A stretch of 64,000 nucleotides of DNA, taken from assembly GCF_035084215.1 (NCBI RefSeq), contig NW_027139581.1, positions 3,100,001 to 3,164,000 of the forward strand, in the 5' to 3' direction. This stretch comes from Heptranchias perlo (lineage: Eukaryota). The notes under the pieces were generated by a model. That model was not told the DNA's origin. It was given only the letters and a program-made list of their open reading frames with translations, and ran no database searches. The translations under genes and the position numbers were made by a program. Positions 34,423-62,264 of the stretch are shown piece by piece. Position 1 is the first letter of the stretch, and each line of letters opens with the position of its first letter.

Positions 34423-35321
34423 TTATTTAATGAATTTAATAATTACAGTAAAGGGATATTTCACCACATTCTTCAACTCCTCTCTGAATTTAGTCTGGGT
34501 CACGGCATAAATACACGTGTTGGTGCAGCAACTCAGGAGCTGGAGCATAAATCCCAGTTCTTGTACAAATTTAGGGAGATACACAGGAATAAAGTCTAAC
34601 ACATATAATCGGTACCATACAAAATACAACAGAAACACCGCCCATAACAGGATAAAATTCCCCGATATAACAAACAGTAAAATGATGGATTTCCTTCTCT
34701 TCTCCATCTCTGGGTCACTGGGACTCTCCCCACTGCTGTGGGCCCGGAGTCTCCTGCGGACTCTGCTCGACACTAAAATGTGTCTGACGGTTAAAACATT
34801 GAGGAGCAGAATCAGAACAAATGGAACAAATGGGGTTAAAATATAATGAAGGAATTCAATTACTGCCCACACCTGAGAGTAAATAACATCATTTGATACA
34901 AAACAAAACCAGGGATCATTACTAATCCAATATTGATCTCCATACATAAAGTACCAGAAAGTGTTCTTCACACAGAACAGCACACTCACTGTTCCCAAAA
35001 CCACAGCCGCCGTTTTCTCGGTGCAATATTTTGTTTTCAGCTTCTGGCAACAAATGGCCACAAATCGATCAAAGGTGAAAGTGACCGTGAACCAGACAGA
35101 ACAGTCTGTGGCTGCGTAAAGCAGGACGGCGTGGATATTACACACTTTAAAGGCCCACATGAACTGAAACTGAGCCCGATAAAGAATAGGAATTTGCCTG
35201 AATATCAGATCAGTGATAACGACCAGTAGATCGGCCGCTGCCATGGACACCAGGTAACGGGTGACACATTTGGAGAGACCGCACCTTCCTCGAGACAGGA
35301 TCACAATCGTCACTAAGTTCA
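34423..35321 (-). CDS. GPR139/GPR142-like class A GPCR (GPCR-1), exon 2 of 2 (339 aa total)
   Basis: Acceptor TTTTTCTCTTCCTTACAG|TG, phase 1. Seven hydrophobic segments with exon 1, plus MAAADLL (TM2), FTFDRFVAIC (DRY-like) and NTCIY (NPxxY-like). Confidence 0.9.
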
Positions 35322-35444
35322 CTGTAAGGAAGAGAAAAACAGGGAATTATACTTCAGACTGAGAGTAAAAGCAGCAGCCTGGTCGAATTCAGGGTGAAAT
35401 GTTCAGCGTTATTATTGAATCCAGGGACAGAATCTAATTACTGG

Positions 35445-35545
35445 TGGAGTTGAGTTCGAAGATCAGCCATGATCTTATTGAATGGCGGAGCAGGCTCGAG
35501 GGGCCGGATGGTCTACTCCTGCCCCTATTTCTTACGTTCGTATGT
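35445..35545 (+). mobile_element. Short CR1 3' tail in the GPCR-1 intron
   Basis: GATCAGCCATGATCTTATTGAATGGCGGAGCAGGCTCGAGGGGCCG. Confidence 0.75.
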
Positions 35546-35679
35546 ACTTTCCTTGTGACAGAACTTTCTGCTGCGGAGAGGGTTTGTTGTAAATGACCGC
35601 CCCGGTGTAGAAGGAAACCAAAACCACCAGCAGGCCCCAGCTCCAATCCAGGGCCTGTCATGGGTCGGCAGTTGGAAGT

Positions 35680-38230
35680 TACAATGGCCTCAGTGACCTT
35701 GGGTTAGGAGATGAAGTGGAACGCCTCCTGGTCCGATTTAACCTAAGATCCTGGCCAGGGAGGGGGATGGATTCAGTAAGGAGGGAACGGAATTTGTGAT
35801 CGGGGCCGAAGACAATGGCTTCACTCTTCGCAATGGTTAAATGGACGAAATTTCTGCTGATCCAGGACTGGACGCCGGACAAGCAGTCTGACAAACCAGA
35901 GGCAGTGAAGGGGCCGGGAGAGGCGGTGCTGTGGTACTGCTGGGTGTGAGTGTACATGTGGAATCTGACAGTGTGCTTTAGGAGGATGTCGCCGAGGGGA
36001 AGCTTGCAGATGTGAAATAGGAGGATTGTTCCTTGGGGGACACCAGCGATAACGGTGCGGGGGCGGGAAGATATGCCGATCCAGGAGATTCTCTGAAGAA
36101 ACCTTGATGGATAGGAATGGAACCAGGCGAGGGCAGTCCCACCCTGTTGGACAACGGACGAGAGGCGTTTGAGTTGGATGGTGTGGTCTCCCGTGTCAAA
36201 GGATGAAGAGGGATAGTTTACCACGGTCAGTCACATAGGATGTGATTTGTGACTTTGATTCGGCCCGATTCCGCGCTGTTGCAGGGGCGGGAACCTGATT
36301 GGAGAGGTTACTGGTGCAGTTTCAGGCAAGAAAGGCATGTATTTGGGAGGTGACAACAAGTTTCAGGAGAGGAAAGGGAGGTTGGAGACGGGGGCGGTAA
36401 TTTGCAAGGACAGAGAGGTCATGGATGGTTTTTTTGAGGATGGGGTGATGACGGCAGATTTGAAAGGAACGTGACAGTACCAGACAAAAGAGAACCGGGA
36501 AGGAAAGAGTTAACTTTGCCCCTTTAGATATTACATTCGGACATTGTAAGTTTAAACTGCAAAGGCAGCAATGTGCAGAAACTTCGAGAAGCTACGAACA
36601 GGCTTTTGGTTCTCAAAACAACTGATAGGAACCTCAACAAACAGCAACTTGGAAAAACAGTGCTGAGAGAGTTTGAAATCTTTGGGAGAGACAATTCAAG
36701 TTACTTACACCTGGTTTCACACGGGGAAAAGGCTGTTGGAGATTTCACACGGTGATTTCACACGGTGATTTCACACGGTGGTTTCACTCGGTGATTTCAC
36801 ACGGTGGTTTCACACGGTGATTTCACACGGTGGTTTCACACGGTGATTTCACTCGGTGGTTTCACACGGTGATTTCACTCGGTGGTTTCACACGGTGATT
36901 TCACACGGTGGTTTCACTCGGTGATATCACACGGTGATTTCACTCGGTGGTTTCACTCGGTGGTTTCACACGGTGATTTCACACGGTGGTTTCACTCGCT
37001 GGTTTCACTCGGTGGTTTCACTCGGTGGTTTCACACGGTGATTTCACACGGTGGTTTCACACGGTGGTTTCACACGGTGATTTCACTCGGTGATTTCACA
37101 CGGTGATTTCACACGGTGGAAAGGCCGCACCTGGGGTCACATGGTTTTGATTGGCCCAGCCAACAGTCCATCATCAATGCATTAGTGTGTGAGTCGCCAA
37201 AATGGGAATTCTCTTAACTTTTACTCACACCCCAACTGGCAAAATCATATAAAGATGTGACATCGTGGCAGACTCTTTAATGTAGTTGGAGGAACCTTAA
37301 GAAGCTTCGCCTGGAGGAAGGACGTCCAACAACAAAAGAAGAAAAGTTCAAGAGAGAGAGAGAGAGCTGATCACTCTTCTGCCTTGGTGCTGAAATCCTT
37401 GGTTTTAAGCTTGAATGTATTGTTTGATTTGTTTGATGCGTGTAAGAATTATGTAAATCATTAAATAATCACTTTGATTAACGAACCTACAACATACATC
37501 TTTGACTGACTATTGTCCAGGCCCTAAAATCGTTTACAATATCAGCTAGCATGGGGATCAGGAAGGGAAGTTGTGTGCTCAGCAGTTCAGTGGGAAAAGG
37601 GCCGAGGGAGCAGCAGATTGGTTTCATGGTCAAGATGAGCTCGGAGAGGGCATGAGGGGAGATAGAAGAGAAACAAGAGAAAGATGTGGATTCAGGGTTA
37701 GGGCTGGGGGGCGGGGACTTTCGGGAAGATTGGCTCGGTGGACTGGAGGAAGGTAGAGAAGCGGCAGAGGCAGCTAAATGAATGGTCTCAATCGTAGTGA
37801 CAAAGAAATCCATGAGCTCCTCGCACTTGAAGGAAGTGAGGGTGGAGGGGACAGGGGAGAGGGGTTTAAGAAGACGGTTTGTAGTGAAGAGAAGCCGGGT
37901 CATCTTCGCATTCCAGGGTGATCCTGGAATAGTGAGCAGTTTTAACAGAGGAGAGCAGGTCCCGATAGTACTTGATGAGGTCGAGCGAGATCTGGCGATT
38001 AATGGCTTATCTCGATGTGCGCCATAAGTGTTCAAATCTGCGTCCCTTGGACCTTAAGGAGCAACGATGGAAGTCGTGCCAAGGAGAACGAACAGGGTGA
38101 GAGAGAGTAAGGGGTTTACTGGGGTCAAGGGTATCAAAGGTGGAGGTGAGGGTGAGATTGAGCTGCAGAAGTACCGTGGCGAATGGAGGGTCAAAGGTGA
38201 AACAGTTGGGAATTTCAAAGTGATCTGAAG
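35680..38230 (-). mobile_element. Degenerate L2-type LINE in the GPCR-1 intron, split by a ~1-kb insertion (36498-37530)
   Basis: ORF pieces SSSFDTGDH..GTALAWFHSY..GVPQG..WISRNFVHL..KSEAIVFG and KCEELMDFFVTTIETI. The two halves appear to rejoin across the insertion. Confidence 0.75.
36741..37117. repeat. 13-bp minisatellite (G(A/G)TTTCAC(A/T)CGGT), about 29 units
   Basis: Direct periodicity. Confidence 0.93.
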
Positions 38231-39061
38231 GAATGGGATTAAATCAAAACCAAAGGAAATAAATCAATTCAAACATAACGGAACAAACAACAACAATTTG
38301 CATTTATATAGCGCCTTTAACATCGTAAAATATCCCAATGCGCATCAACAGTAGATGTCAGATAGTCCATGTGGACATCACTGAGATCTCCTGTAATGTG
38401 GCGCACGGGAACGGGACGAAATGAAAACAGTGGAAATAAATCAACTCAAACATAACTGAATAAATAATTTACTGGAATATATATTATAGTTTAAAGCCTG
38501 TCCTGACCATCCACCACCAGTGACCATAAGGTAGAGCGAGAGACGGTTGAAATTAAGACAGCTGCCTGGAGCTGAATCATTATTAGATATTGTCCAATAT
38601 TTCAGAGTGTATTGGTGATCTGACTGTCAGCGCTGGTTTCCACAGATCAGTGTCATTAACTATAACCAGCAGACCTTAAAACTCCTGTTGCCTGTGAACA
38701 CATATTTCTGATCCGACACGAGGGTTCAGTGCAGAGAGCAGAGGGCAAACTGTTCAATAAAGAGAATCCTCCAACAACCTTCCTTGTTTACAGCCAACAG
38801 TCAAATTAGCAGTTGAATCCTATAAAAATGACTATCAGTTGAAGAAAGTGATGAAAAGTAATGAAAAGGACAGACTGTTCATTGGTCTGGGAGCAGGTAA
38901 TCGGCAACTGTTCACATGTTACATGAAGGAAACAAGGTGCATTACCAGACACTGAACAAGAGGATTACACTGAATACAATTAATAACCGGGTCTAAAGGA
39001 CAAGGACAGTAAATACAGTTAATCATGGTTTACAGAATGATTTGCTGAAATAATGACTTAC

Positions 39062-39182
39062 CAGGAACACCAACAGTAGCAAGGAGCGGATAGTAAATCT
39101 TTTGTACATCAAAAATTGCCCACAGAATCCGAAGTTCAGTTGGAACATACCAGAACATTCTTTCATCATCTCTGAGATCCAT
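39062..39182 (-). CDS. GPCR-1 exon 1 (MDLRDDERMFWYVPTELRILWAIFDVQKIYYPLLATVGVP)
   Basis: ATG at 39182, 121 nt, donor G|GTAAGT at 39061. Joins in frame to give GVPVN in TM1. TATA ~75 nt upstream of the ATG. Confidence 0.88.
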
Positions 39183-39251
39183 TGATCACTGTTTGACCTG
39201 GAGGCAAAGCTGCATCAAACACTCTGATGTGACGCCTTGAAAACAGTCCCT

Positions 39252-39331
39252 ATTTATATCTTGGGGGAACTCTCCAGTGTGACATTTAAACGACACAATG
39301 GCTGACATTAATTATAGTCACTGAACAAACA
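39252..39331 (-). promoter_or_regulatory. GPCR-1 core promoter (TGTTTGTTCAGTGACTATAATTAAT ... ATGTCA ... TATAAAT)
   Basis: TATAAA starts at 39258. Motif order and spacing are shared with 58700-58778. Confidence 0.7.
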
Positions 39332-39624
39332 GGTCAGGTTAATCCCTTAACACCATCACTCTATTATGGGTGAACAAGTAGTTTACTGACATGAAGTGAT
39401 GGTATCGATAATTCGAAATATTACTTCAAAAAACATCGTGAAGGAAGAAAATATGAATCCCGCAGTCTTACAGTACTGATGTGAAGAGAGAGCAGCTTTA
39501 CTGACAGTGTTCTGATTACTTCTGTGATATGAATTCAGCCTGCAATTTCAGGATTTTTCAAATCAGTTTCTGGGTTGGACTTAACAAATGTGCGAAAGAC
39601 AAAAAAGGATGGATAGAAGCAGAT

Positions 39625-41485
39625 CAAGTTATGGTCAGTAAGGATATGAGGGCGGATAATACAATGGTCAGTAAGGGTATATGGGGGCTGATAATACAAT
39701 GGTCAGTAAGGATACATGGGGTCTGATAATACAATGGTCAGTAAAGATACATGGGGGCTGATAATACAATGGTCAGTAAGGATACATGGGGGCTGATAAT
39801 ACAATGGTCAGTAATGATACATGGGGGCTGATAATACAATGGTCAGTAAAGATACATGGGGGCTGATAATACAATGGTCAGTAAGGATACATGGGGGCTG
39901 ATAATACAATGGTCAGTAAGGATACATGAGGGCTGATAATACAATGGTCAGTAAAGATACATGGGGCTGATAATTCAATGGTCAGTAAGCATAAATGGGG
40001 CTGATAATACAATGGTAGGTACGGATAAATGAGCGATAATAATACAATGGTCATTAAGGAAACACGGGGTCTGATAATACAATTGTCAGTATGGATACAG
40101 GAGAATGATAATACAATGGTCAGTTAGCATACACGGGGCTGATTATATAATGGTCAGAAAGGATGCAGGTGGATGATAATGCAATGGTCTTCAAGGATAC
40201 ATGACTCTGATAATGGAATAGTGAGTAAGGATACAAGAGGATGATAATACAATGGTGACTAAGGATACCGAAGGATGAAAATACAATGGTCAGTAAGGAT
40301 ACCGGAGGATGATAATACAGTGGTCAGTAAGGATACATGGGGGCTGATAATACAATGGTCAGTAAGGATACATCGGGGCTGATAATACAATGGTCAGTAA
40401 GGATACACGGGGTCTGATAATACAATGGTCAGTAAGGATATATGGGGGCTGATAATACAATGGTCAGTAAGGATACATGGGGGCTGATAATACAATGGTC
40501 AGGAAAGATACATGGGGGCTGATAATACAACGGTCAGTAAGGATACCGGAGGATGATAATACAATGGTCAGTAAAGATACATGGGGGCTGATAATTCAAG
40601 GATACATGACTCTGATGATAGAATAGTGAGTAAGGATACAAGGGGATGACAATACAATGGGAACTAAGGATACCGAAGGATGATAATGCAATGGTCATTA
40701 AGGATAGATGGGGCTGATAATACAATGTTCAGTGAGGATACATGGGGCTGATAATACAATGTTCAGTGAGGATACATGGGGCTGATAATGCAATGGTCCT
40801 GAAGGATAGGTGGGGCTGAATATATAATGGTCAGTAAGGATACATGGGGGCTGATAATACTCTGGTCAGTAAAGATACAGTAAGCTGATAATACAATGGT
40901 CAGGAAGGATATATGGGGCTGATAATACATTCGTCAGTAAGGATAAACGGGGTCTGATAAAACAATCTACATTAAGGATGTATGGGGCTCATCATACAAT
41001 GGCCAATGTTGATCCATGGGGCTGATAATACAATGGGCATTCAGTTCAAATGGGACTGATAATACAATGGTCAGTAATGCTACCTGTGGACTGATAATAC
41101 AGTGGTCTGTGTGGGTACACGGGTGCTAATAATACAATGATAAATAAGGGTATATGGTGTCTGATAAGACAATGGTCAATGAGGGTAAATGGGACTGATA
41201 ATACAATGGTAAGTACGGATAAATGGGGGCTGATTATACAATGGTCATTAAGGATACATTGATGCTGATAATACAATTGTAAGTGAGAATAGATGGGGTC
41301 TGATAATAAAGTGGTCAGGACGGATACATGGGGGCTGATAATACAATGGTCAGAGAGGATACATGGGGGCTGATCATACAATGGTCAGTCACGATACATA
41401 AGGGCTGATAATACAATGGTCAGTAAGGATACCTGGGGCTGATAATACAATGGTCAGTAAGGATACCTGGGGCTGATAAAACAAT
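39625..41485. repeat. 35-bp satellite, about 50 units (GATAATACAATGGTCAGTAAGGATACATGGGGGCT), upstream of GPCR-1
   Basis: Direct periodicity with patches of diverged units. Confidence 0.95.
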
Positions 41486-41489
41486 GAGT

Positions 41490-43205
41490 AAAAGGGCAGT
41501 CAAAGGAAGCGTGGGACTGATTTGGGACAAAAAGGAGATCTTCTTGTGGAGGCAGTGGGCATGGCTGAGGTACTAAATGAATGCTTCGCATCAGTCTTCA
41601 AGAGAGAAGAGGATGCTGCCACTGTCGCAGTAAAGGAGGAGGTAGTAGCGATATCAGATAGGGCAAAAATAGGTAAAGAGGAGGTACTTGAAAGGTTGGC
41701 AGCTCTCAAAATAGAAATATCACCCGATCCAAACTAGATCCATCCGATGTGACTGAGGAAAGTAAGGGTAGAAATTGCAGAGGCTCTGGCCACAATCTTC
41801 CAATCTTCCTTAGATATGCGGCAATGCCAGAGTATTGGAGGAACACAATTGCTATAACCCTGTTCAATAAAGGGGAGAGGGATAAACCCGGCAATTACAG
41901 GCCAATCAGCCTAACGTCAGTGGTGGGGAAACTTTTAGAGACAATAATCCTGGACAAAATTAATTTGCACTTGGAAAAGTATGGGCTAATAAGTGAATGT
42001 CAGCACGGATTTGTCAACGGAAAATCACGTTTCACTAACTTGATTGAGTTCTTTGATGAAGTAATGGAGAGGGTTGATAAGGGCAGTGTGGTAGATGTTG
42101 TAAATATGGACTTTCAAAAGGCTTTTCATGAAGCACCACTTAATAGACAAAATTGAAGCATATGGAATTAAAGGGACAGTGGCATTGTGGATACAATATT
42201 GGCTTATGGTCAGAAAGCGGAGAGTAGTGGTGAACGGTTGTTTTGCAGGACGGAGGGGAGCTTGCAGTGGTGTTCCCCAGGGGATGGTGTTAGGACCATT
42301 GCTCTATGTGATCTACATTAATGGCCTGGACTTAGATATACAGGGTATAATTTCAAAGTTTGCGGATGATACGTAACTCAGGAATGCAATAAGCAATGTG
42401 GAGAATAGTAACAGACTTCAGGAGGACAGAGTCAGACTGGTAAAATGGGCAGACACATGGCAGATAAAATTTAATGCAGAGAATGTGAAGTGATCCATTT
42501 TGTTCGGAAGAATGAGGAGAGGTAATATAATCGAAATGGTACAATTTTAAAGGGGGTACAGGAACAGAGAGACCTGGGGATTATGTACACAAATCCTTGA
42601 CGATGGCAGGACAAGTTGAGAAGGCTGTTGAAAAAGCACATGGGATCCTGGGCTTTATTAACAGAGGCATAGAGTACAAACGCAAGGAAATTAAGCTAAA
42701 CCTTTATAAAACACTGGTTAGGCCTCAGCTGGACAATTGTGTTCAGTTATGTGCACCACACAGGAGGAAGGAGGTGAAGGCCTGAGAGAGGGTGCAGAAG
42801 AGATTTACGAAAATGGTACCAGGGATGAGGGACTTCAGTTATGTGGACAGACTGGAGAAGGTGGGATTGTTCTCCTTCGAGCCGAGAAGGTGAAGAGGAG
42901 ATTTGATTGAGGTATTGAAAATCATGAACAATTTTGAGAGAATAAACAAGGAGAAACTGTTTCCATTGGCAGATGGGTCGGTAACGAGAGGGCACAGATT
43001 TAAGGTGATTGGCAAAAGAGCCAGAGGCGACATGAAGAAACATTGTTTTAATGCAGATCTTTGTAATGATGTGGAATGCACGGCCTGAAAGGATGGTGAA
43101 AGCAGATTGAATAGTAAATCTCAAAAGGGAATTGGATAAATACTGGAAAAGAAAAAAAATAGAGGCTCGAGGGGCTGAATGGCCTCCTCATGTTCCCATG
43201 TTCCG
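41490..43205 (+). mobile_element. CR1 LINE 3' ~1.7 kb, degenerate
   Basis: MAEVLNECFASVF, PGNYRPISLTSVVGKLLE, GVPQGMVLGP, SKFADDT, TRGHRFKV, followed by the CR1 tail. Confidence 0.9.
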
Positions 43206-43884
43206 AAGCTAACTCCACTTACCCATGATGCCTGTAATAGCCATATTATCATTGTTTAATGCTAAAACTCATATAGAACCACAGTTATTTTCCAACAATG
43301 GTAACTTATTTTAACCCTGGTGAATGGTTTTCCTCTTGAACGAACGATTGTCTTTGAAATGTGACACACACTGACCGCCCATTATTCTCCCATCATTGGT
43401 CACCGCCCACCAGCCGCCCTCTGTGTCCATGAAGATGAGTCTGACGGACAGATTAATCCCATTTTAAATGATCTTCCTCCACATTTACCAGGAATACAAG
43501 TGTCTGCCGCCTTCCACAAAGAGGCGCGAGGCATTGTCTGTGACTCCGTGCAGTCGCCTCGATGAGAAGTTCAAACCAATGGGAAGTAAGTCTAAAACTG
43601 CAGATACATCCTTGTGACTGTGGTGCCTGGATTTCTGTCCCATTCACCAATCACCTGGGGTATAGTAAAGATACATTGATCACCTATTCCTCTATTACCC
43701 GGACATTCTTGAGGCTAAGATCCTGCCCAGGTTTGGCTGCTCCCTGGGGAGCTCCTTTGCTCTGCATCTCTATCCTTGACCATCCGTTGCCATCCTTTGC
43801 CCTTTCTCCCCCAATCTCCTCTCTTCCACTGTTTAAGTTCCTCTGGCTCCAATCGTGGATGCATTTTAGCCCGAACTACAAGTT

Positions 43885-45340
43885 CAAGCTATACACCAGA
43901 TACATCGACGAAATTTTCTTTCGATGGACCCACGGTGAGGAATCACTAAAGAGACGACACGACAACATCAACAAGTTCCATCCCACCATCAAGCTCACCA
44001 TGGACTCCTCCTCAGAATCAGTTTCTTTCTTGGACACACGAATCTCCATCAAAGACGGGCACCTCAGCACCTCACTCTACCGCAAGCCCACGGACAACTT
44101 CACGATGCTCCACTTTTCCAGCTTCCACCCTAACCACGTCAAAGAGGCCATCCCCTGTGGACAGGCCCTGCGAATTCACAGGGTCTGCTCAGACGAGGAG
44201 GAACGCGATGGACACCTACAGACTCTGAAAGACGCCCTGGTAAGAACGGGATATGACGCTCGACTCATCGATCGACAGTTCCGACGGGCCACAGCGAAAA
44301 ATCGCACAGACGTCCTCAGAAGACTAACACGGGACGCAGCCAACAGAGTACCCTTCGTCGTCCAGTACTTCCCCGGAGCGGAGAAACTACGCCATGTTCT
44401 CCGCAGCCTTCAACATGTCATCAATGACGACGAACACCTCGCTATGGCCATCCCCACACCTCCACTACTCACCTTTAAACAGACACCCAACCTCAAACAG
44501 ACCATCGTTCGCAGCAAATTACCCAGCTTTCAAGAGAACAGCGTCCACGACACCACACAACCCTGCCACGGTAACCTCTGCAAAACATGCCAGATCATCG
44601 ACACAGATACCACCATCACACGAGAGGACACCACCCACCAGGTGCATGGTTCATACTCCTGTGACTCGGCCAACGTTGTCTACCTCATACGTTGCAGGAA
44701 AGGATGCCCCAGAGCATGGTACATTGGCGAGACCATGCAGACACTGCGACAACGGATGAACGGACACCGTGCAACAATCGCCAGACAGGAGGGTTCCCTC
44801 CCAGTCGGGGAACACTTCAGCAGTCAGGGACATTCAGCCACCGACCTTCGGGTAAGCGTACTCCAAGGCGGCCTTCGAGACACACGACAACGCAAAATCG
44901 TCGAGCAGAAATTGATAGCCAAGTTCCGCACCCATGAGGACGGCCTCAACCGGGATCTTGGGTTCATGTTACGTGACACGTAAGCCCACCAGCGAACAAT
45001 ATCTATCTGTTTTTAATATAACGGTTCATTTGCTTTCTTTCTGTGCCTTCCGGATGTTTCTGCCTCTCTCTGTTTTTTTTTCCTGTTTGTTTTTTTTGTT
45101 GAATGTATATTCGGGGGTTCTGTTGGTAACACCTCTCTGGCTGAACACGGTGATTGCCTTGGCAACGGGCAGTTGCAAAGGCTGTCTGTAATCACCATGT
45201 ATTGTTCTGTGATTTATAAATGCGTAGGCTTCGAGGAGTTCCTGACATTTACCAGAGGAAGGATGAAGCCTCCGAAAGCTTGTAGATTTCAAATAAAATC
45301 GTTGGACTATAACTTGGTGTTGTAAAATTGTTTACAATTA
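43885..45340 (+). mobile_element. Penelope-like retroelement, 5'-truncated (RT C-terminus + GIY-YIG endonuclease, open to 44983) with 3' pLTR
   Basis: RYIDEIF (YIDD-type), FLD..I, LYRKPTD, C-x4-CKTC linker, NVVYLIRC...WYIGET (GIY-YIG), HF..GH, GLN. Confidence 0.93.
45248..45286 (+). ncRNA. Degenerate minimal type I hammerhead ribozyme motif (core CAGAGGA instead of CUGANGA)
   Basis: TTTAC-CAGAGGA-A-GGA(TGAAGCC)TCC-GAAA-GCTT-GTAGA. Stems I and II can pair, but U4 is mutated. Confidence 0.6.
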
Positions 45341-52048: not shown

Positions 52049-52049
52049 A

Positions 52050-55028
52050 CAGAGTGGAGCTACAATAGGGGGTGATGTGCAGCCAAATATCGAGAAAAAA
52101 ACAAGTCAGCTTGGAAGACAGGGCAAATATGTGAGGGCAAGGCTGGATGGCATCTATTTTAATGCAAGGAGTCTTGCGAATCAGGTGGATGAACTGAAGG
52201 TGTTGATAAACACATGGGAGTATGATATTGTTGCTGTCACAGAGACATGGTTGAGGGAGGGGCAAGACTGGCAGCTCAATATTCCGGGGTACAGAATCTT
52301 CAGGCGAGACAGAGGGGGAGGTATAAGAGGAGGGGGGGTCGCAATATTAATTAAAGAATCAATTACTGCCATAAGGAGGGATGATATATTAGCAGGTTCC
52401 TCTAATGAGGCCATATGGGTGGAGCTTAAAAACAAAAAGGGGGCAAGCACTTTGATGGGAGTGTACGATAGGCCCCCAAACAGTCAGGGGGAGATAGAGA
52501 AACAGATATGTAGGCAAATCTCAGAAAATTGTGCAAATAATAGGGTAATAATAGTGGGGGATTTCAACTTCCCCAATATTAACTGGGATACTCAGAGTGT
52601 AAAAGGCTTAGAGGGTACAAAATTCTTAACGTGCATCCAGGAGAGCTTTTTGAGCCAGCATGTAGAAAGTCCTACAAGAGAGGGGGCGGTACTGGACCTA
52701 ATTCTCGGGAATGTGGCCGGCCAAGTGGAAGAAGTGCTATTAGGTGAGCACTTTGGTGACAGTGACCATAATTCGGTGAGATTTAAGGTGGTCATGGAAA
52801 AGGGCAGGGAGGGGACGGAAATAAAGGTTCTAAATTCGGGGAAGGCCGATTTTAATAGGATAAGGCAGGATCTGGCCAAAATGGACTGGGATCAGCTGCT
52901 TGTAGGAAAATCCGCATCGGAGCAATGGGAGTCTTTCAGAAGGGAGATTGAGACCATACAATGGCAACATGTTCCCGTAAAGGTCAAGGGTGGTTCCAAG
53001 AACTCCAGGGAACCTTGGATGTCAGGGGATATACGAGAATGGATTAGGAAAAAAAGGAGGGCTTTTGGCAGATACAAAAGGCTAAAGACGGAGGAAGCCC
53101 TAGAGGAGTACAAAAAGTGCAGGGGGATACTTAAAAAAGAAATTAGGAGATCAAGGAGGGGCCATGAAATAACACTGGCGAGCAAAATAAAGGAAAATCC
53201 TAAGATGTTTTATAAGTATATTAAGGGTAAGAGGATAACTAGGGAAAAAATAGGGCCCATTAGGGACAAAAATGGCAATCTGTGTGTGGAGCCGGCAGAT
53301 GTAGGAGGGGTTCTAAATGAATTTTTTGCATCTGTTTTCACTATGGAGAAGGACGATGTAGACATAGAAATACGGCAGGGGGACTGTGATATACTCGAAC
53401 ATATTAACATCGAGCGGGAGGAGGTATTGGCGGTTTTAGCAGGCCTAAAAATGGATAAATCCCCAGGCCCGGACGAAATGTATCCCAGGCTACTCTGTGA
53501 GGCAAACGAGGAGATTGCGGGGGTTCTGACACATATATTCAGAACCTCTCTGGCCACAGGGGATGTGCCAGAGGACTGGAGAACCGCTAATGTAATACCA
53601 TTATTCAAGAAGGGGAGTAGGGAAAAACCGGGGAACTACAGGCCAGTGAGCCTAACATCAGTGGTAGGAAAATTATTGGAAAAAATTCTGAAGGACAAAA
53701 TTAGTCTCCACTTGGAGAAGCAAGGATTAATCAGGGATAGTCAACATGGCTTTGTCAAGGGAAGATCATGTCTGACTAATTTGATTGAATTTTTTGAGGG
53801 GGTGACTGGGCGTGTGGATGAGGGTAACGCAGTGGATGTGGTATACATGGATTTCAGTAAGGCCTTCGATAAAGTCCCCCACAGGAGACTGGTCAAGAAG
53901 GTACGAGCCCATGGAATCCAGGGTGCCTTGGCACTTTGGATACAAAACTGGCTTCGTGGCAGAAGGCAGAGGGTGATGGTCGAAGGTTGTTTTTGTGACT
54001 GGAAGCCTGTGGCCAGTGGGGTACCACAGGGATCGATGCTGGGTCCCTTGCTGTTTGTGGTCTACATTAATGACTTGGATATGAATGTAAAAGGTATGCT
54101 CAGTAAGTTCGCTGATGATACAAAGATTGGTAGGGTGGTAAATAGCGAGGAGGATAGCCTCAGTCTGCAGGACGATATAGATGGGTTGGTCAGATGGGCG
54201 GAACAGTGGCAAATGGAATTTAACCCGGAAAAGTGCGAGGTGATGCACTTTGGAGGGACTAACAAGGCAAGGGAATAGACAATGAATGGGAGGACCCTAG
54301 GCAAGACAGAGGGTCAGAGGGATCTTGGTGTGCAAGTTCACAGATCCCTGAAGGCGGCGGAACAGGTAGATAAGGTGGTAAAGAAGGCATATGGGATACT
54401 TGCCTTTATTAGCCGAGGCATAGAATATAAGAGCAAGGAGGTTATGATGGAGCTGTATAAAACACTGGTTAGGCCACAGCTGGAGTACTGTGTGCAGTTC
54501 TGGTCGCCACACTACAGGAAGGATGTGATCGCTTTGGAGAGGGTGCAGAGGAGATTCACCAGGATGTTACCAGGGCTGGAGCGCTTCAGCTATGAAGAGA
54601 GACTGGGAAGATTGGGTTTGTTTTCCTTGGAGCAGAGGAGGCTGAGGGGGGACATGATTGAGGTGTACAAAATTATGAGGGGCACAGATAGGATGGATAC
54701 TAAGAAGCTTTTTCCATTCGTTGAGGGTTCTATAACAAGGGGACATAGATTCAAGGTAAAAGGCGGGAGGTTTAGAGGGGATTTGAGAAAGAACTTTTTC
54801 ACCCAGAGGGTGGTTGGAGTCTGGAACTCACTGCCTGAAAGGGTTGTGGAGGCAGGAACCCTCACAACATTCAAGAAGCATTTGGATGAGCACTAGAAAT
54901 GCCATAGCATACAAGGCTACGGACCAAATGCTGGAATATGGGATTAGAGTAGACAGAGCTGATGGCCGGCGCGGACACGATGGGCCGAAGGGCCTCTATC
55001 CGTGCTGTATAACTCTATGACTCTATGA
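52050..55028 (+). mobile_element. Young CR1 LINE with an essentially complete ORF2 (APE + RT), two premature TAG stops, no ORF1
   Basis: One frame 52077-54947 with stops only at 54276 and 54894. YFNARSL, TETWL, GDFNFP, SDHN, QHGF, GVPQG, FADD. (ACTCTATG)2 3' terminal repeat. Confidence 0.95.
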
Positions 55029-56214
55029 CATACAACTGCCTCGTGTCTGCTCAATCCAGCCAAGCTGCCTGCATCGTTCTTTAATGTTGTTATAGTCTTC
55101 CTCATATTTTGCCAAACCCTGCTTTTGTTTCTCAGCAAAATTAGAGATTGTCTAAGTCCAAATCATCTCGAGAAGCAGTGGGAGTTAGTGGGGTTTGGCA
55201 CATGGACATTCCTTGATTAACCCGAGCACTGCTACCTGCTCCTCAGTTTTAGATCTAATGATGGATCCTAAGAGTTTCTCCACAAACAAGATTGGAACCT
55301 TTGGTCTACACGTATCCAATGGATTTCTCTCTCCCTCCCGTACCAAAAACACCAATCTAATTTCATACCAAGACACCACAATGTCAGAACATACTGGGCC
55401 TTTCTCAATCATCCCCAGGGAGAAGTGATATCGTAGATTGGATGGCAAAAAGTGAAACAGTCCCTAACCGAAGAGACTAACTATTAAAGCTTCATCCGAG
55501 TCATCAGCCAGGGTGCAGTAAAATGTGTTATAACCAAAGAGAAAAAAGACAAATAATTAATAAATCTTCATCTTCGTAACTGTAGCTGGTTTCATCTTAG
55601 CTAGCAGACTCCCTGAAGGTTGCCTCACAGTGGGACAAACCTATTTCAATGTGCTGTCTGTGGACAAACCAATTTATGTTGTTCGAACAAAAAGATTTCT
55701 CCGAGTAGCTGCCGATGTTAATGTATCTCATCAAATCCGCCTATTATATAAATCTCTTTCTGATACAAGAATATTAGCCCAGAAATTACTTTTGCTCATA
55801 CAGTGGACAACTAATTAACACATTCCAATGAAAATCAGGAACAACTTGCATTCACAGACCGCCTTTAATGTAATAAACATTCCCAAGGGGATTCACAGGG
55901 GCTGGAAGTAAAACAGGCACAAACGGAATCAGGAGGGATGATGAAATCCTTCGGCAAGGAGGGTTTAAGGGGGGTGTAAAACGAGAGACGAAGGGGATCA
56001 GGTTGGTTTTAGTTGTGTGAAGGAATGGCCACCAATGGTGGGATGAAGACAGAGGAGGATGGTAAAGTATAACAATAACTACCTGGATTGATAAAGCGCC
56101 TTTAACATGGATAAAAGTTAAAGGTGCTTCACAGAGATATCATCCGACAAAAATGGACCCCAGCCAAGGATGGGGATATTCGTAGAGGGACAAAAGCTTG
56201 GAGCAAGAGATGGA

Positions 56215-56673
56215 TAGAAAGAAAGAAAGAAAGTTACATTTATTAAGCGCATTTCACAATCTCAGTATGTCCCAAAGTGCTTTGCAGCCAAAGAAATACT
56301 GTTGTAATGTAAGAAACACAGCGGGCATACTGCACACAGCAAGATCCCACAAACAGCAATGTGAAATTGAACAGATCATCTGGTTTTAGTGATGTTGATT
56401 GAGGCATAAATATTGGCCAGGCCAGCGGGGAGAACTTCCCTGCTCTTCTTCGAATAGTGCCATGGGATCTTGTACATCGACTTGAGGGGTCAGACGGACC
56501 CTCGGTTTAACGTCTCATCTGATGAAGGACTGCACCTGTGACAGTGCAGCATTACCTCAGTACAGCACTGAACTGAAGATTTTGTGTTGAAGTCGCTGAA
56601 GTTGGTCTTGAACGCACAAACTTCTCATCTTCTAACTCAGAGGCAAGAGTCCCACCCACTGAATCACAGCTGA
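56215..56673 (-). mobile_element. tRNA-headed SINE with a Deu-domain-like core and L2-like tail (SacSINE1/AmnSINE1-related)
   Basis: On -: A-box-like TGATTCAGTGG, B-box-like GTTCAAGACC, core GATGAGACGTTAAACCGAGG...AGATCCCATGGCACTATTCGAAGAAGAGCAGGG, (TTTC)n end. The family name is recalled from known consensus, not searched. Confidence 0.72.
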
Positions 56674-56679
56674 CACCTG

Positions 56680-58200
56680 AAAGGGAGTAATGTAGATGGG
56701 AGAACTTTGGGAGCACACCTGGGGCGTGGACGTGGCTTCAGGTTCAGCTGCCAAAAGTAGGGCAAAGAGATTGTGGATACACAAGCAGCCAGAGGTGGAG
56801 GAGAAGAGAGAGGGGCTGTAAAACTGGAGGAGGTTGCAGAGATAGGGAGGGGTGAGGCTCTCATGTATTTAAGCGTAAGGAAGAAAACGATAAAGACTTA
56901 GGAGACTGGAAGCCAATGCAGGTCAGTGAGGGCTTGGATGATTGGTGAAGGAGATAGTGAGGGATAGGTTACAGACAGCAGAGTTTTGGATGAGTTGAAG
57001 TTTTTGGAGATGCCGGAGAGGAGAACAAAGGCCAGAGAGGGTAGAAAGGCATGGCTAAGGGTTTTAGTAGCAGATTATCAAGGCGAGTGGAACGGGTGTT
57101 ATTACGGACCCGGAAGAAGGCGGTCTTTGTGATGGAGAGGATATGGGATCAGAAGCTCAGCACGGGGTCGAATGGGACGTCAAAGTTACGAACAGTGAGT
57201 TTCAGCCTCAGACAAAAGCCAGGCATGGGGATGGAATCAGTGCCGAGGATTTGGAGATTGTGGGGCCAAAGGTCATGACATTCCAATTGTAACTGGAGGA
57301 AATTGTAGCTTATTTAAAACAGGTTGTCGGTCTGATAACACAAAGACATTGGAAAGGTCGACAGGGGCGGTGATTTTGTCCACGTTCAACTGAAAGCAGG
57401 TCCATGTTTGCAGACGAAGTCACCATAGATGAGGAAAAGGGATAGGTTACAGACAGCCTTGATAATCTGCTACTAAAACCCTTAGCCATGCCTTTCTACC
57501 CTCTCTGGCCTTTGTTCTCCTCTCCGGCATCACCATGTAGATGAGGAAAAGGAGGGAGCCGAGGATTGAACCTTTAGAAACATCAGAGATAACGGTGGTA
57601 GGGTGGGAAGAGAAGCTTCTCCCGGTTACGATCAGATCATTGAGTGGAAACAAGCGAGGGTCGTCCCACCAAAAGAGGACAATGTCTGATGAATGAGGAG
57701 GTCATGGGTGGATTTGCTGTAGGTGCTTGGGGAAATGTTCATGGTTATGTGGAAAGAGCAAGATGGTGGGACTAATTGAATAGCTCTTTCAAAGAGCCGG
57801 CACAAGCAAAATGGGTCGAATGGCATCCTTCAAATTCGATGAATTAATTTGTGGTGGGGTGGGGGGCGGATGCAGAGGGGTGGCCCATGGACGAATTTAA
57901 AATCAAGGATGAGAATTTTAAATTTCAGGGATATGGGAGTGGGTGCCAGTGAGGGTCAGTGAGGCCGAGCGGGACCTGGTGCTGGTTGGTCACAGGCAAC
58001 AGAGATTTGGACGAGCTCAGGTTTATGGAAGGTGGAGGATCGGTGGCCGGCCAGGACTGTATTGGAGGAATGGAGTCTGGAAGGGACAGAGGCATGGATG
58101 AGGGACTCAATGGCAATGGGCTGAGGAAGGAATGGAGGCGGGTGAGGGAAACAGGGGGCCTTTGTGATGGAGGTCAAATCAGGTCATCAGTTCAGCTCGG
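56680..58200 (-). mobile_element. Highly degenerate L2-type LINE
   Basis: ISDVSKGSILGSLLFLIYM (GVPQGS.LGP.LF..Y) and IESLIHASVPSRLHSSNTVLAG (LVHAFVTSRLDY.N..LAG-like). Confidence 0.7.
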
Positions 58201-58699
58201 CGTTACACGGGGCCAATTTTACTGGACCCGTTAACCAATGTAGAATAAACGGGTAAACACCTGCAGTAAAATAGCGGAGAGTGGAATCCCAATGGGGCAC
58301 TTTCAGTCTCCGTCCCCTAATATCACCCACAGTCATTTCTAGGCTGCAATCCTCAACCTGCCCTTTAACTCTCCTCGTGTCGGAGACTCAAAATTCATAT
58401 TTTGACTGGGAAACTGCAGGAACAGAGTGAAACGGGTCTGGTTGAGTCCCTGGATTTAATGTACACTGCGGATAAATCGGTATACATTATAAATGAATCG
58501 CCAAGAGTGAACATGACCAATACAATTATATGAAAACTGTGAATGAAGCCGCTCATTATTGTTGGATCAGTCCTGTATGAGCACAGATTTTAACTTTATT
58601 CCTGAGAGAGGTCTCATTAAGATAATGTCCTGGACTTTGAGATGTTTGTGTTATATCCACCACATTATTTATATCGGAGTCAAAGCTGCTGATGTAATG

Positions 58700-58778
58700 T
58701 GTTTGTTCAAGTGACTGTAACTAATAGCAATGATCAGGAGTATAACCATGTCAGTGTCGACTTGTCCCCTGTATAAAT
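58700..58778 (+). promoter_or_regulatory. GPCR-2 core promoter (TGTTTGTTCAAGTGACTGTAACTAAT ... ATGTCA ... TATAAAT)
   Basis: TATAAA at 58772. Same motif order and spacing as 39331-39252. Confidence 0.7.
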
Positions 58779-58862
58779 CAGGGTTCATTGGAATTCATCA
58801 GTTCAGGGCGTCTTCTGGAGTTATGTTTACCAGACCAACAGAAGTGACAGCTTCTCACAGAA

Positions 58863-58932
58863 ATGGGATATCCAGTAATATTTCAGATAGAAGACATTTA
58901 CTATCCTGCCCTTTCAGCCGTTGGAGTGCCGG
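58863..58932 (+). CDS. GPCR-2 exon 1 (MGYPVIFQIEDIYYPALSAVGVP)
   Basis: GAA-ATG-G start, 70 nt, donor G|GTAAGC at 58933. IYYP...VGVP matches GPCR-1 exon 1. Confidence 0.88.
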
Positions 58933-61359
58933 GTAAGCTGTTATCTCAGCTGATAATGGCGTAAATCGGTGTTAACTGTGCTGCTGTCCTTGGCGAAATA
59001 TTTTTTCTCCCTGCATGTTTTGCACGGTGGCCTGAGCTGCTCTACCAGTTTAATGATGGAATGTGTTAAGTTGGTCTTGTTGGAGCTGGTCTGTAATGAT
59101 CTTTGGAAATCCAACCCTGGCATTGTTACTGGGTGTACTGAATGTACACTACTCTGTACTGAATGTACTGTTCAATAACTGAATGTACTGTTCAATAACT
59201 TCTAAACGTTCGGTCTTGTCGCAATTCCATTATATCTGCAATGACCTTTGTATATCCCAAACTGGCATTGTTCCTGGATTATTCTCTGTACTGAATGTAT
59301 TGGAATCAGGTGTCTGGACTAAGAGATGGTATCAGACCATCAGGAGCTGTTAACAGTTTCATGTTGTGGAACTAACGTGTCCTGGAATATTTTTTCATAA
59401 ATGTGTTTTCAGTGATTGATAATGAGACAGCTCACGGTCTCAGTGTTCCAAGAAGGCAGAGCAAAGTCCCCCTTCCCCAATAACATGGTTCAGTTTAACA
59501 GGGGTTTCAGTCTATTTATTGGTTATCACTTATGAAATGTTATTTCATTGCGTTCATCTGACAGAGCTCCAGTTGTCTGGCTTCTGTATTGAGTTTGTTG
59601 CTGAATCTTTCACATCTCCTTTTCTGCTTCACTGTGGATGAATTCATTCTAAGATACAATGTTTTGGTGTTATGCTGTGTCAGTTTGCACTGTAACTGTT
59701 GGAATCCTGAGTCCTTCTATTTATCTGTGAATTCTGAGCAGCAGCGGTGACGTTGGCGTTTTGTTTGAAGAACAACACCGCTATCTAATGGTGCACTTTA
59801 TAATTACAGGAGAAGAATTTCAATCATTGTGAAATCTGGAAGATGTATTTCTTCCATGATTTTACAGATTTCTATGTTTCTTCCATGATTTGCAGATGAA
59901 GCAAACAGCGTAGGCGAACAGGAGGAAACTTGGAAATCTGTAGTAACAGTAAACTATTCCACAGAGGCTTCACTATTTAACAAACTGACACTGAGAATAG
60001 GATCCGTGGAACACGGGGCTGGTGAACAGAATGTAGGGGCAGGAAGTTAGGATTGAATCGAAAGTGAAAAGGGCGCATTGAGAAAGAGAGTAGAGAGGGC
60101 AGAATAATAGATAGAAGAGCGAGAGTGCAATAAAACCCTCACAATCTGACAACTAATAGATAGAGAAGCGATAGAGACTGAGGCGGAGAGGGAAAACGAG
60201 AGGGGGGAGGAGGAGCGTGAGACGAGAAAGAGAGAGAAAGAGAGAAAGGGAGAGACAGAGAGAGAATGAGAGAATGAGAGAGAGAGCGAAAAAGCGACAG
60301 CAGGGTGAATAATTCATCGGAATGAACTGCTGAAACTTCCAGTACAATTATGAAGAGGAAATGTGACTTGAAGATGTTAATAGGAAGTTGTCAGATTGTG
60401 AGAGTTTTATTGCACTCTCGCTGGGTGTGTTTATCGTTATCAGGACCTCAGTCTGTTTTGGTGATTGTTACTTTTCCTTATTCACTGACTGAATAAATAA
60501 ACATAATTCAAATGTATTTAAAGAATAGAATCAGTGATTTTTTGATCCTAATGAATTATTATGATACTGTATTCTAAAAACTCGGTATCAGCGGAATTCA
60601 ATGAAGAACGAGGTTGATTTAATGAATACATTTTGATTTAATTTTAATTGAATGTGCAAATTAAATTTAATGAGCACATTTTATAGCCAATGAGCGGTTC
60701 CCTGACACCAATAACCACTGAAATGAACTGTTGAATTTATTAGTTGGATTGTGTTAGTGGGGTCTATAGATTAGATTTCCTCTCACATTCTGCTGCAGTC
60801 TCTCCCTGTGAATCCCAGTCTCTCCAACCACCACATTGAATCCTCTGTCTCCTCATCCATTGCTTCAGTTCATCCGCTTTCTCACACCAGCTGTTCCTGA
60901 CTCCCTTCCAGCCACTCTCGGCCTTTCCCCGTTTTGTGCCAACCCCTGTCGGTTCTCTTAACCCAGGGCAACAAATCAGCTGCACCTCCGCCTATCCCCT
61001 CACCTTCCCAGCCTCTGCTCTCTTTCCCGTCAGTCTGGAGCCAAATCCGACTTTAACCTGTTGGATTCCCGCTCGGTAAAACTCCTTCTCCCTTCCCCAC
61101 CGGCACTGCGCTCTCACTCGGCCCTTCCAGTGGATCCGGTGCTCATTTATTCACTTTCTTTATCGATTTCACAATTCATTATTTATAATTGAGTTTAAAA
61201 ACATCTCTCTTCCTGAAAGCGCTCTCCAGGTGAATGAATCAGTTTCCACCGTTCGATGCAGGAACAAAGCTGGAAATTTAACCCCAGATCCTGTCAAATT
61301 GCTGCTTTGGCTCCAGGTCTGATCAGTAATTTCTATGCTTCCTTTTCTCTCTCTTACAG

Positions 61360-62264
61360 TTAACTTGGTGGCGATTCTGATCCTGTCCCGAGGAAAGTGC
61401 GGGCTCTCCAAATGTATCAGTTGCTATCTGGTAGGAATGTCTGTGGCCGATCTCCTGGTCGTTATCACTGATCCGATATTGACACGGGTTGGTCAAATTT
61501 ATTTCCGCAATTCATTCTTGTTCATTACTCCCGTGTGTCGTCCCATTAAGTACTTGGGTTCTGCAGCCACAGTGGTATCCGTCTGGCTCACAGTCGCTTT
61601 CACCTGTGATCGATTTGTGGCTATTTGTTATGAGAATCTTAAAACAAAATATTGCAACGAGAAAACGGCGCTTGCAGTAATAGGGACAGTGAGTGTGTTG
61701 GGCTTTTTAGAGAGTGTTCCCTGGTACTTCATATATGAACCTTACCTTACAATTGATAATGTTCCCAGAGATTGTATCTTTAAAGTGATCTTCCGCACTT
61801 CCCCAGTATGGGCCGCATTTGAGTTATTTCACCTCATTTTAACCCCTTGTGTCCCGTTCTTTCTGATTTTGCTGCTCAATGTTCTGACGGTCAGACGCAT
61901 TTTGGTGGTCAGTCGAGTCCGCAGGGGACTCCGGGGCCGCAGCAATGGAGAGAATCACCAGGATCCAGAGATGGAGAACCGAAAGAAATCCATCATTTTA
62001 CTCTTCAGTATATCGGGCAGTTTTATCCTATTATGGATGACACAGGTTGTAAATAACATTTATCGGCGAATGACAGACACTCGGTATTATAATTCCTTCA
62101 CTGACCCTCGTTATATCACAGAATCCACATCAAGAATACTGCAGCTTCTCAGTTCCTGCACAAACACGTGTATTTATGTCCTAACCCAGGCTAAATTCAG
62201 GGAGGAGCTGAAGAACGCGGTGAAATACCCACTCAATCTAATTGTTAAATTAGTGAAATCGTAG
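61360..62264 (+). CDS. GPR139/GPR142-like class A GPCR (GPCR-2), exon 2 of 2 (324 aa total)
   Basis: Acceptor TTTTCTCTCTCTTACAG|TT, phase 1. MSVADLL, FTCDRFVAIC, NTCIY. Colinear with GPCR-1. Confidence 0.9.

Follow-up and report, generated by a model that had tools for sequence, protein, structure and literature searches.

The nearest mammalian relatives of the receptors considered here sense Trp and Phe according to PMC5430874, which assigns the Trp/Phe site of GPR139 to F3.33, H5.43, W6.48, R6.51, and N7.39. Additional orphan sets related to GPR139/142, termed GPR210A/B, are reported from coelacanth, gar, and fishes (Rinne et al. 2019, PMC6504862); they comprise one to three subtypes, unlike the shark expansion described below. 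The protostome MIP/sex-peptide/FMRFamide/proctolin receptor group is reported as the sister of GPR139/142 (PMC8557429), and the nematode chemoreceptor family srw is reported to derive from peptide-type receptors (PMC3963977). Published accounts credit shark genomes with few olfactory receptors and few GPCRs overall (PMC8455134, PMC11979771), and the olfactory families counted for the catshark are small (2 + 6 OR/OR-like, 3 ORA, 3 TAAR, 2 TARL, and 32 V2R; PMC11979771). Against this background, two genes of the shark Heptranchias perlo belong to a real, repertoire-like, and apparently undescribed GPCR family, which sequence comparison places as related to GPR139 but distinct from it, on a sister branch. 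It is a vertebrate expansion separate both from the protostome receptors named above and from srw.

The window analyzed, the whole 64,000-nt stretch of H. perlo DNA, holds two intact class A GPCR genes, A and B, in divergent orientation and with two coding exons each (Table 1). A phase-1 intron interrupts the same TM1 codon in both, and neither reading frame is broken before its stop. Exon 2 of each gene translates to a sequence 100% identical to an H. perlo database protein, P0244 (339 aa) for gene A and P0241 (324 aa) for gene B. Both proteins are named "probable GPR139," and their first 60 residues agree with the spliced models. The preliminary description of the locus, which had proposed two complete two-exon 7TM genes sharing a phase-1 TM1 intron, is thus borne out, and each of the four intracellular motifs that it quoted occurs in both genes. 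It had also called the pair head-to-head, which is correct for orientation but not for adjacency, as 19,681 nt, including retroelement remains (RVT_1 and Exo_endo_phos matches at 52020-54275), separate the start codons. The surroundings contain many repeats and C2H2 zinc-finger ORFs, and a tblastn search of the window yielded no further copy. The N-terminus of gene A is 17 residues longer than that of gene B, or 9 if the second in-frame ATG is the start; neither protein has an N-x-S/T sequon along its full length.

Table 1. Positions of the two receptor genes, their upstream regions, and the spacer within the window
Feature	Position	Strand	Basis or remark
Gene A, coding exon 1 (N-terminus and first half of TM1)	39062..39182	-	N-terminus matches P0244
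Gene A, second in-frame ATG	39158	-	within exon 1
Gene A, intron (GT-AG, phase 1, 3740 nt)	35322..39061	-	
Gene A, coding exon 2 (rest of TM1 to C-terminus, stop TAA; type A subfamily)	34423..35321	-	100% to P0244, and tree
Gene B, coding exon 1	58863..58932	+	N-terminus matches P0241
Gene B, intron (GT-AG, phase 1, 2427 nt)	58933..61359	+	
Gene B, coding exon 2 (stop TAG; type B subfamily)	61360..62264	+	100% to P0241
Gene A, proximal upstream block, homologous to that of gene B	39189..39547	-	local score 83 vs maximum of 57 in 1000 shuffles
Gene A, TATA box	39253-39258	-	in gene A upstream block
Element of ~25 nt common to both upstream blocks, gene A copy	39307-39331	-	
Gene B, proximal upstream block	58496..58841	+	homologous to that of gene A
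Gene B, TATA box	58772-58777	+	in gene B upstream block
Shared upstream element, gene B copy	58700-58725	+	
Spacer between the two promoters	39783..58262	.	LINE-type reverse transcriptase/endonuclease remains

Among solved structures, the family profile matches GPR139 most strongly (E 7e-18) and the PrRP receptor next (7e-11), and GPR139 is also the first match of the amphibian and coelacanth relatives. This affinity, above that for other class A receptors, speaks for membership of the family in the GPR139/142-MIP/SPR/FMRFamide receptor superfamily. Human GPR139 resembles the family in its alignable TM1, TM2, and TM3 motifs, in having no proline at 7.50, and in keeping H5.42 (5x43) and W6.48. 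It differs in overall sequence (about 20% identity, structure row 7vug), in the absence from the alignment of C3.25, which the shark family possesses, and in copy number, which is one compared with tens to hundreds in the shark family (GPR142 stands outside this comparison); P6.50, like P7.50, is missing from the family. The family profile gives human GPR139 68 bits and the amphibian gene 214 bits, so the label "probable GPR139" is a loose one; scores for proteins from amphibians, coelacanth, teleosts, and amphioxus range from 104 to 214 bits. Gene B by itself matches human GPR139 at 31.8 bits, lower than it matches the orexin and CCK-B receptors. At the positions of the GPR139 Trp/Phe site, gene A has Y, H, W, F, and F and gene B has S, H, W, Q, and R; R6.51 and N7.39, the polar amino-acid anchors of GPR139, are lost in both. 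Despite the database label, the structure match, and the retention of H5.42 and W6.48, we therefore consider it very improbable that these genes are the GPR139 or GPR142 orthologues of sharks, or near copies of them, with Trp/Phe as ligands. The scores uphold the earlier view that there is no one-to-one orthology with GPR139, whereas amino-acid sensing in the GPR139 mode finds no support, given the lost anchors, and the family derives from a sister branch instead of being the GPR139 lineage itself.

The trees were midpoint-rooted, leaving out GPR139, GPR142, and the named protostome receptors (74 rows by quick search; 29 rows by careful search without a mixture model). The 29-row tree recovers one elasmobranch clade (98/95) as sister to an amphibian and sturgeon gene (100/99). 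The latter (P0399, P0456-P0475), also labeled "probable GPR139," has 32-33% identity to the shark family and shares with it the ICL2 cysteines, the TM5-TM6 motifs, the short N-terminus, and C3.25. Unlike the shark family, the amphibian gene is represented by one cluster per named species (20 amphibians), and its pocket is nearly fixed. No amniote occurs among the 25 matches to it; a Xenopus "probable GPR139" row with empty amniote columns appears in PMC10416458 but is not tied to P0459. Coelacanth P0411 and silverside P0422 fall outside the shark and amphibian clade and may correspond to GPR210A/B; a look through the supplement of Rinne et al. did not turn up the coelacanth Ensembl identifiers of those receptors.

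In two family searches, E<=1e-3 was reached by 2132 candidates out of 4037 and by 2662 out of 3709. The family counts are lower bounds drawn from the best 120 matches in each search, all of them elasmobranch. The matches listed include at least 99 H. perlo clusters, which together hold 254 member sequences and collapse to 89 groups when core identity is set at 95% and to 70 when it is set at 90%; all 99 have a near-complete 7TM core, a count that rests on annotated proteins and leaves pseudogenes out. One 7.1-Mb scaffold carries 28 members of five clusters, and paralogues of gene B at 99.3% and at 85-96% lie on gene B's own scaffold. The lineage-expanded paralogue family that had been postulated thus exists. 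It had been assigned to cartilaginous fish, which holds for elasmobranchs, with relatives in 18 shark and ray species among the matches listed; no holocephalan is among the named matches, and the range shown is that of elasmobranchs. The family comprises many deep subfamilies, and the subclade of gene A is common to Heptranchias, Heterodontus, and Pristiophorus. Our literature search found no description of the family, which is concealed by the automatic name "probable GPR139" and by several other incorrect names.

All 113 members examined match PF00001, C3.25 is present in 111 and the ECL2 cysteine in 113 of them, and the H. perlo clusters carry the DR[FYC] (97/99) and TM7 N..[IFL][YF] (96/99) motifs. 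The predicted fold is 7TM with an ECL2 hairpin bound to TM3 by a disulfide, and the AlphaFold2 model of gene B has seven TM helices plus helix 8 (mean pLDDT, 79.6). The family has no aspartate at 3.32, the position at which aminergic receptors carry one. Family N-termini also contain no sequon (0/54). A short, sequon-free N-terminus had been taken as a sign of a chemoreceptor, but the trait is ancestral, as 10 of 10 outgroup proteins are sequon-free in their first 30 residues.

Genes A and B are identical at 180 of 321 positions, but identity is 133/179 (74%) in the inner half and 46/142 (32%) in the outer half (Fisher p=4e-14), and it falls to 2/13 in ECL1, 7/25 in ECL2, and 0/10 in ECL3, in agreement with the initial observation of similar intracellular parts and divergent loops and outer TM halves. 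The same asymmetry is seen among H. perlo paralogues, for which the ratio of outer to inner divergence is 3.55 (CI 2.71-4.88) in 19 type B and 2.91 (CI 2.25-3.80) in 23 type A sequences. In 20 amphibian orthologues, a control with overall divergence similar to that of the shark paralogue sets, the ratio is 0.62 (CI 0.46-0.82), the reverse of the shark pattern. The concentration of change on the ligand side was therefore rightly recognized.

How far this divergence reaches the core pocket, and so how far it may reflect the diversified ligand recognition that was also proposed, differs between the subfamilies. The pocket difference is 0.475 in type B, 0.192 in type A, and 0.017 in the amphibians, so that core-pocket divergence is clear in type B and weak in type A. 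The core pocket of type A is not diversifying: H3.28, A3.29, L3.32, and D3.37 are fixed in 42/42 sequences from three species, and this fixed TM3 pocket is that of the gene A subfamily. Between A and B, the single DNA pair compared, no dN/dS ratio exceeds 1. It is 0.146/0.586 (about 0.25) in the inner half, indicating purifying selection, 0.757/0.96 (about 0.8) in the outer half, and 1.215/1.511 in the ECLs. Both latter values are below 1 and are therefore compatible with relaxation. A largely non-adaptive expansion, in which copies of a small two-exon gene accumulated across repeat-rich regions with zinc-finger clusters and its outer half drifted under relaxed ligand constraint, would fit the outer-half value, the neighborhood of repeats and C2H2 zinc-finger ORFs, and an intactness count from which pseudogenes are excluded. 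Nevertheless, we consider it quite unlikely, given the constrained inner half, the retention of W6.48 in 113/113 family members and of the type A pocket residues, and the persistence of the family as many deep subfamilies in 18 shark and ray species. The amphibian orthologues, for comparison, all keep F3.33, W6.48, P6.50, K6.51, and N7.39 (20/20).

High copy number in clusters and ligand-side divergence beyond the orthologue background support the reading that we tentatively favor, at somewhat below an even chance: the sequences suggest a chemical-sensing repertoire in which many outer pockets feed one shared G-protein pathway. The small catshark olfactory families, the Trp/Phe sensing of the nearest mammalian relatives, and the homologous upstream blocks with their TATA boxes also count in its favor, whereas the fixed pocket of type A and the dN/dS values below 1 count against it. 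The ligand would lie in a pocket between TM3, 5, 6, and 7, above the invariant W6.48, and the kept H5.42/W6.48 floor would favor an aromatic or hydrophobic moiety. Specificity may be set by the variable positions 3.32, 3.33, 6.51, and 7.39 in type B and by the variable loops in type A. By analogy to GPR139/142, the conserved cytosolic face would engage the same G protein throughout the family, likely Gq/11, and signal through calcium. The receptors would sit in chemosensory cells exposed to water or to the gut lumen, whether in the olfactory epithelium or as cells of the taste or solitary chemosensory type. Like the OR, TAAR, V1R/ORA, T2R, and V2R repertoires, the shark family consists of many clustered short genes with birth-and-death turnover and divergence on the ligand side; unlike them, it has no Pfam relationship to vertebrate chemoreceptors (0/113 matches to the odorant, bitter-taste [T2R], and V1R families at E<=0.01). 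As for expression, catshark data list no GPCR among the 50 genes most specific to brain plus olfactory tissue, a weak test for many low-expressed paralogues (PMC11979771). The searched supplements of PMC8455134 (12/24 files), PMC10115646, and PMC10529500 contained no expression rows for the family, and that of PMC3964593 had no GPR139 match.

A bolder version, which we regard as rather doubtful, is that elasmobranchs multiplied an orphan GPR139-related gene, single or lost in bony vertebrates, into an unrecognized vertebrate chemoreceptor family independent of OR/TAAR/V1R/V2R/T2R and exceeding in size the known shark olfactory families combined. If true, it would overturn the view of sharks as sensing chemicals with about 50 receptors. 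A sensory role would represent a new origin of vertebrate chemoreceptors and would bear on the question of how sharks tell chemicals apart when so few receptors are known in them. Whatever the tissue, at least 70 to 99 intact, pocket-diversified GPCRs in one shark challenge the GPCR-poor view. The single-copy amphibian sister gene, with its fixed pocket, offers a tractable handle on the ancestral ligand in Xenopus or axolotl.

The ligands could instead be diversified endogenous or conspecific peptides (neuroendocrine, reproductive, or pheromonal), with the receptors continuing the aromatic-peptide role of the GPR139/MIP/sex-peptide/FMRFamide group. We know of no matching ligand expansion. The fixed core pocket and variable loops of type A, as well as the gene A subclade common to three genera, are consistent with such a role, as is the binding of peptides with aromatic C-termini reported for the wider receptor group (PMC8557429). 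However, the closely similar gene B paralogues on one scaffold point to rapid species-level turnover, which is unusual for hormone receptors, and we judge this explanation unlikely.

The main rival to a chemosensory role is an immune or barrier one, in which the family would form a new surveillance repertoire of leukocytes, mast-like cells, or nociceptor/skin cells for microbial or damage-derived peptides or metabolites. Immune and barrier GPCR expansions such as mammalian FPRs and MRGPRs show the same outer-divergence pattern, and the same copy number and clustering would be expected. The ECL2 hairpin with its disulfide and the best fold matches to peptide receptors would suit peptide ligands, in a generic way. 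Sharks are reported in PMC8455134 to have no MAS1-related receptors, and another family could thus fill the niche. On the other hand, the nearest characterized relatives are neural and enteroendocrine nutrient and peptide receptors (PMC12208981, PMC8557429, PMC5430874), and a crude scan found no ETS/IRF/NF-kB consensus common to both 300-nt promoters, the one ETS-like match being confined to gene A. The 3' intron ends of A and B also align above shuffles, so that part of the upstream likeness may reflect slow neutral decay and the motif scan has no diagnostic value. Overall, we consider the immune role possible but somewhat unlikely. A shared bidirectional promoter is ruled out by the distance of 19.7 kb and the separate TATA boxes.

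Foldseek matches of the gene B model are class A receptors, with GPR139 in 22nd place among generic peptide receptors, and were set aside as a guide to receptor identity for want of discriminating power. Pfam matches to DUF3120 and Pico_P2B, in one member each, were taken as chance. No member matches Pfam Srw (0/113), and 13 of 113 match Srx weakly. Some atlas neighbors of the family are named FMRFamide receptor-like, and some neighboring clusters carry the Srw chemoreceptor Pfam family in 17-74% of their members, which we treat as a lead only.

We conclude that the sharks and rays have a large G-protein-coupled receptor (GPCR) repertoire from a GPR139-related sister branch, which is real and apparently undescribed. 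The two receptor genes studied here, gene A (database protein P0244) and gene B (P0241), are already in databases as "probable GPR139", and the real question is the nature of their family. Seven-transmembrane (7TM) frames were located by a six-frame scan of the window, flanks were read, and exons were joined by script. Splicing and translation bore out the preliminary description of two complete two-exon 7TM genes sharing a phase-1 TM1 intron and lacking N-x-S/T sites: both introns are GT-AG and interrupt the identical TM1 codon in phase 1, and neither whole protein contains such a site. The genes are divergently oriented, their start codons being separated by 19,681 nt, and no third receptor copy was found within the 64-kb window. 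Three C2H2 array ORFs adjoin the pair, placing the receptor cluster in a zinc-finger-rich region.

Features of the window (positions in nucleotides)
Feature	Position	Strand	Remarks
Gene A	exon 1 39182-39062; exon 2 35321-34423	minus	intron 3740 nt; 339 aa, spliced model
Gene B	exon 1 58863-58932; exon 2 61360-62264	plus	intron 2427 nt; 324 aa, spliced model
7TM reading frame	34426-35346	minus	PF00001 match
7TM reading frame	61323-62261	plus	PF00001 match
Common ~25-nt element	39307-39331	minus	50-70 nt 5' of TATA box
Common ~25-nt element	58700-58725	plus	50-70 nt 5' of TATA box
C2H2 zinc-finger array ORFs (9-15 fingers)	3080-3871; 13325-14662; 23700-24569	minus; plus; minus
LINE ORF2-like frame	52020-54893	plus	endonuclease, reverse transcriptase; one in-frame stop
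Stop-to-stop ORF	43544-44980	plus	479 aa; no Pfam match
Minisatellite, 40-nt unit	1-634 and 22339-22972		arrays mutually inverted, 21.7 kb apart
Minisatellite, 67-nt unit	7793-10300
Minisatellite, 27-nt unit	18606-21200
Minisatellite, 22-nt unit	31707-32700

At E<=1e-3, the gene B search gave 2132 clusters among 4037 candidates and the gene A search 2662 among 3709. All 240 rows among the matches listed for both were sharks or rays; the named matches covered 18 such species and included no holocephalan. The lineage-expanded paralogue family proposed earlier is evident in at least 99 Heptranchias perlo clusters among the matches listed, with 254 member sequences (a count that isoforms and haplotype duplicates may inflate), and in the 28 members (7 type A and 21 type B, the subfamilies holding genes A and B) on the scaffold with P0241 and P0244. 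Two same-scaffold members are 99.3% identical to gene B. Among members read from eight such clusters, 53 of 55 were H. perlo proteins. Re-clustering the 99 on their 7TM cores left 95, 89, 70, and 25 groups at 97, 95, 90, and 80%, and all 99 have a near-complete core (annotated proteins only). Four gene models (P0002, P0077, P0115, and P0119) join a full receptor to part of an adjacent copy, which points to densely packed tandem arrays with some partial copies among them. Many members bear differing automatic names (tachykinin, GPR15, GPR39, SIFamide, ACKR3, CysLT1, PrRP, or vasopressin V2 receptor-like; P0012, P0056, P0061, P0089, P0117, P0194, P0262, and P0363), which obscures the family's size.

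Plain GPR139 orthology is hardly tenable, as gene B scores merely 31.8 bits on human GPR139, lower than on the orexin and CCK-B receptors. The label nevertheless names the correct superfamily, since GPR139 ranks first among solved structures on the family profile (67.9 bits, E 7e-18), followed by the PrRP receptor. That profile scores 214 bits on a salamander gene, 183 on coelacanth, 163 on silverside, 124 on amphioxus, and 114 on anchovy proteins. Each of 20 named amphibian species has one cluster of the salamander gene (66-74%); there is a sturgeon relative at 46%, and the gene's 25 matches, from a search of limited sensitivity, include no amniote. In trees that contain neither true GPR139 nor GPR142, 18 elasmobranch rows form one clade (98/95; 29-row careful tree), sister to sturgeon plus amphibians (joint clade, 100/99). 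Types A and B are old, separate subfamilies (100/100 and 100/99). A 74-row quick tree recovers the same joint clade, a gene A subclade common to three shark orders, and a same-species paralogue as gene B's closest row.

The salamander gene (53 bits) and the coelacanth protein (70 bits) were both ruled out as GPR139 orthologues. The amphibian/sturgeon orphan receptor (P0399 and P0456-P0475) has a nearly fixed pocket and occurs in sturgeon and every one of the three amphibian orders; it is mislabeled "probable GPR139" and is a deorphanization target by itself. Further GPR139-related branches (lamprey plus anchovy, coelacanth plus silverside, and amphioxus; P0436, P0449, P0411, P0422, and P0432) suggest that mammals have lost several of this group's vertebrate lineages. 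GPR210A/B is present in coelacanth and fishes (PMC6504862), and GPR139/142 is placed sister to protostome MIP/FMRFamide-type receptors (PMC12208981, PMC8557429, and PMC8514136), according to the portions available.

As first described, divergence is concentrated on the ligand side. With regions placed by class A anchor residues in our own generic numbering, genes A and B agree at 46/142 outer positions (extracellular loops and outer TM halves) versus 133/179 inner, cytosolic-side ones (p=4e-14), and mean entropy over 113 aligned members is 1.83 bits outer versus 0.78 bits inner. Because this pattern could be generic, amphibian orthologues of comparable overall divergence (0.19-0.24) served as a control, with loop limits from the AlphaFold model and paralogue sets that we chose as normal-length subsets of the 99 clusters and their members. 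The outer/inner divergence ratio was 3.55 (CI 2.71-4.88) for 19 type B and 2.91 (2.25-3.80) for 23 type A H. perlo paralogues. The 20 amphibian orthologues, by contrast, gave 0.62 (0.46-0.82). Mean differences over 23 pocket positions were 0.475 for type B, 0.192 for type A, and 0.017 for the amphibians. Expansion thus reversed the constraint, the single gene keeping its ligand side fixed and the paralogues their cytosolic side. Type A is a partial exception to pocket diversification: H3.28, A3.29, L3.32, T3.36, and D3.37 are invariant in 42/42, so its variation lies in the loops and rim, not the core. For the one DNA pair, A versus B, dN/dS was 0.146/0.586 inner and 0.757/0.96 outer, none above 1, indicating purifying selection on the inner half and near neutrality of the outer half. 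Drift in repeat-rich clusters is a quite unlikely account of the family.

Cytosolic cysteines at gene B residues 37, 42, 113, and 122 (ICL1 and ICL2) and their gene A equivalents are nearly invariant (C37, C42, and C122 in 113/113 members); the ICL1 pair is missing from the amphibian gene. Lipidation or metal sites are possible roles for them.

Mutagenesis and modeling place the GPR139 Trp/Phe site at F3.33, H5.43, and W6.48, with a polar end at R6.51 and N7.38/39 (PMC5430874, in the part available). Transferred through the family profile alignment to human GPR139, the equivalents (F3.33, H5.43, W6.48, R6.51, N7.39) are Y, H, W, F, F in gene A and S, H, W, Q, R in gene B. The histidine is kept in 90/113 members and W6.48 in 113/113, and position 7.39 carries F in 40/42 type A members, whereas most type B members have K, G, or N there. 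In 20/20 amphibian sequences the gene has F, W, K, and N; Q takes the place of H. We infer that the ancestral gene likely has an aromatic ligand of the GPR139 kind and that most shark copies no longer use this binding mode. The suggested "amino-acid repertoire" is accordingly unsupported for genes A and B, in which R6.51 and N7.39 are replaced.

Our tentative reading, from sequence, is a chemosensory repertoire in which many differently tuned outer pockets would be combined with one common cytosolic interface, probably with Gq/calcium output. An immune or barrier surveillance repertoire would give the same sequence pattern, and we consider it rather improbable. The AlphaFold model (pLDDT 79.6) shows a 7TM receptor fold that includes an ECL2 hairpin, and its matches to class A peptide-type receptors are generic. 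Receptors for endogenous or pheromonal peptides are an unlikely alternative. Nematode srw chemoreceptors are described as derived from peptide-type receptors (PMC3963977). The boldest version of the chemosensory reading, that sharks have here a new main chemoreceptor family, is doubtful.

Lineage-specific GPCR repertoires are already known as such, and this family adds another form. No published account of the expansion appeared in titles or abstract openings, where "GPR139-like" was unmatched (a search mostly outside the subscription literature). The accessible part of PMC11979771, which gives olfactory family sizes, has no "GPR" term, and that of PMC10620051 no GPCR term. In PMC10416458, the main text available had no match and one supplement row matched; the supplement files searched for PMC10115646, PMC10529500, and PMC3964593 had none. 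A paucity of GPCRs in cartilaginous fishes is stated in the section available of PMC8455134.

Each gene has its own TATA box within an ~350-nt upstream block, and the alignment of the two blocks beats 1000/1000 shuffles. The 3' intron ends align as well, so this likeness may partly reflect slow decay. The element 5' of each TATA box comprises a forkhead-like core and then an AT-rich homeodomain-like core. The 479-aa ORF may resemble a Penelope-like retroelement's C-terminal part, and the LINE ORF2-like element between genes A and B is fairly young.
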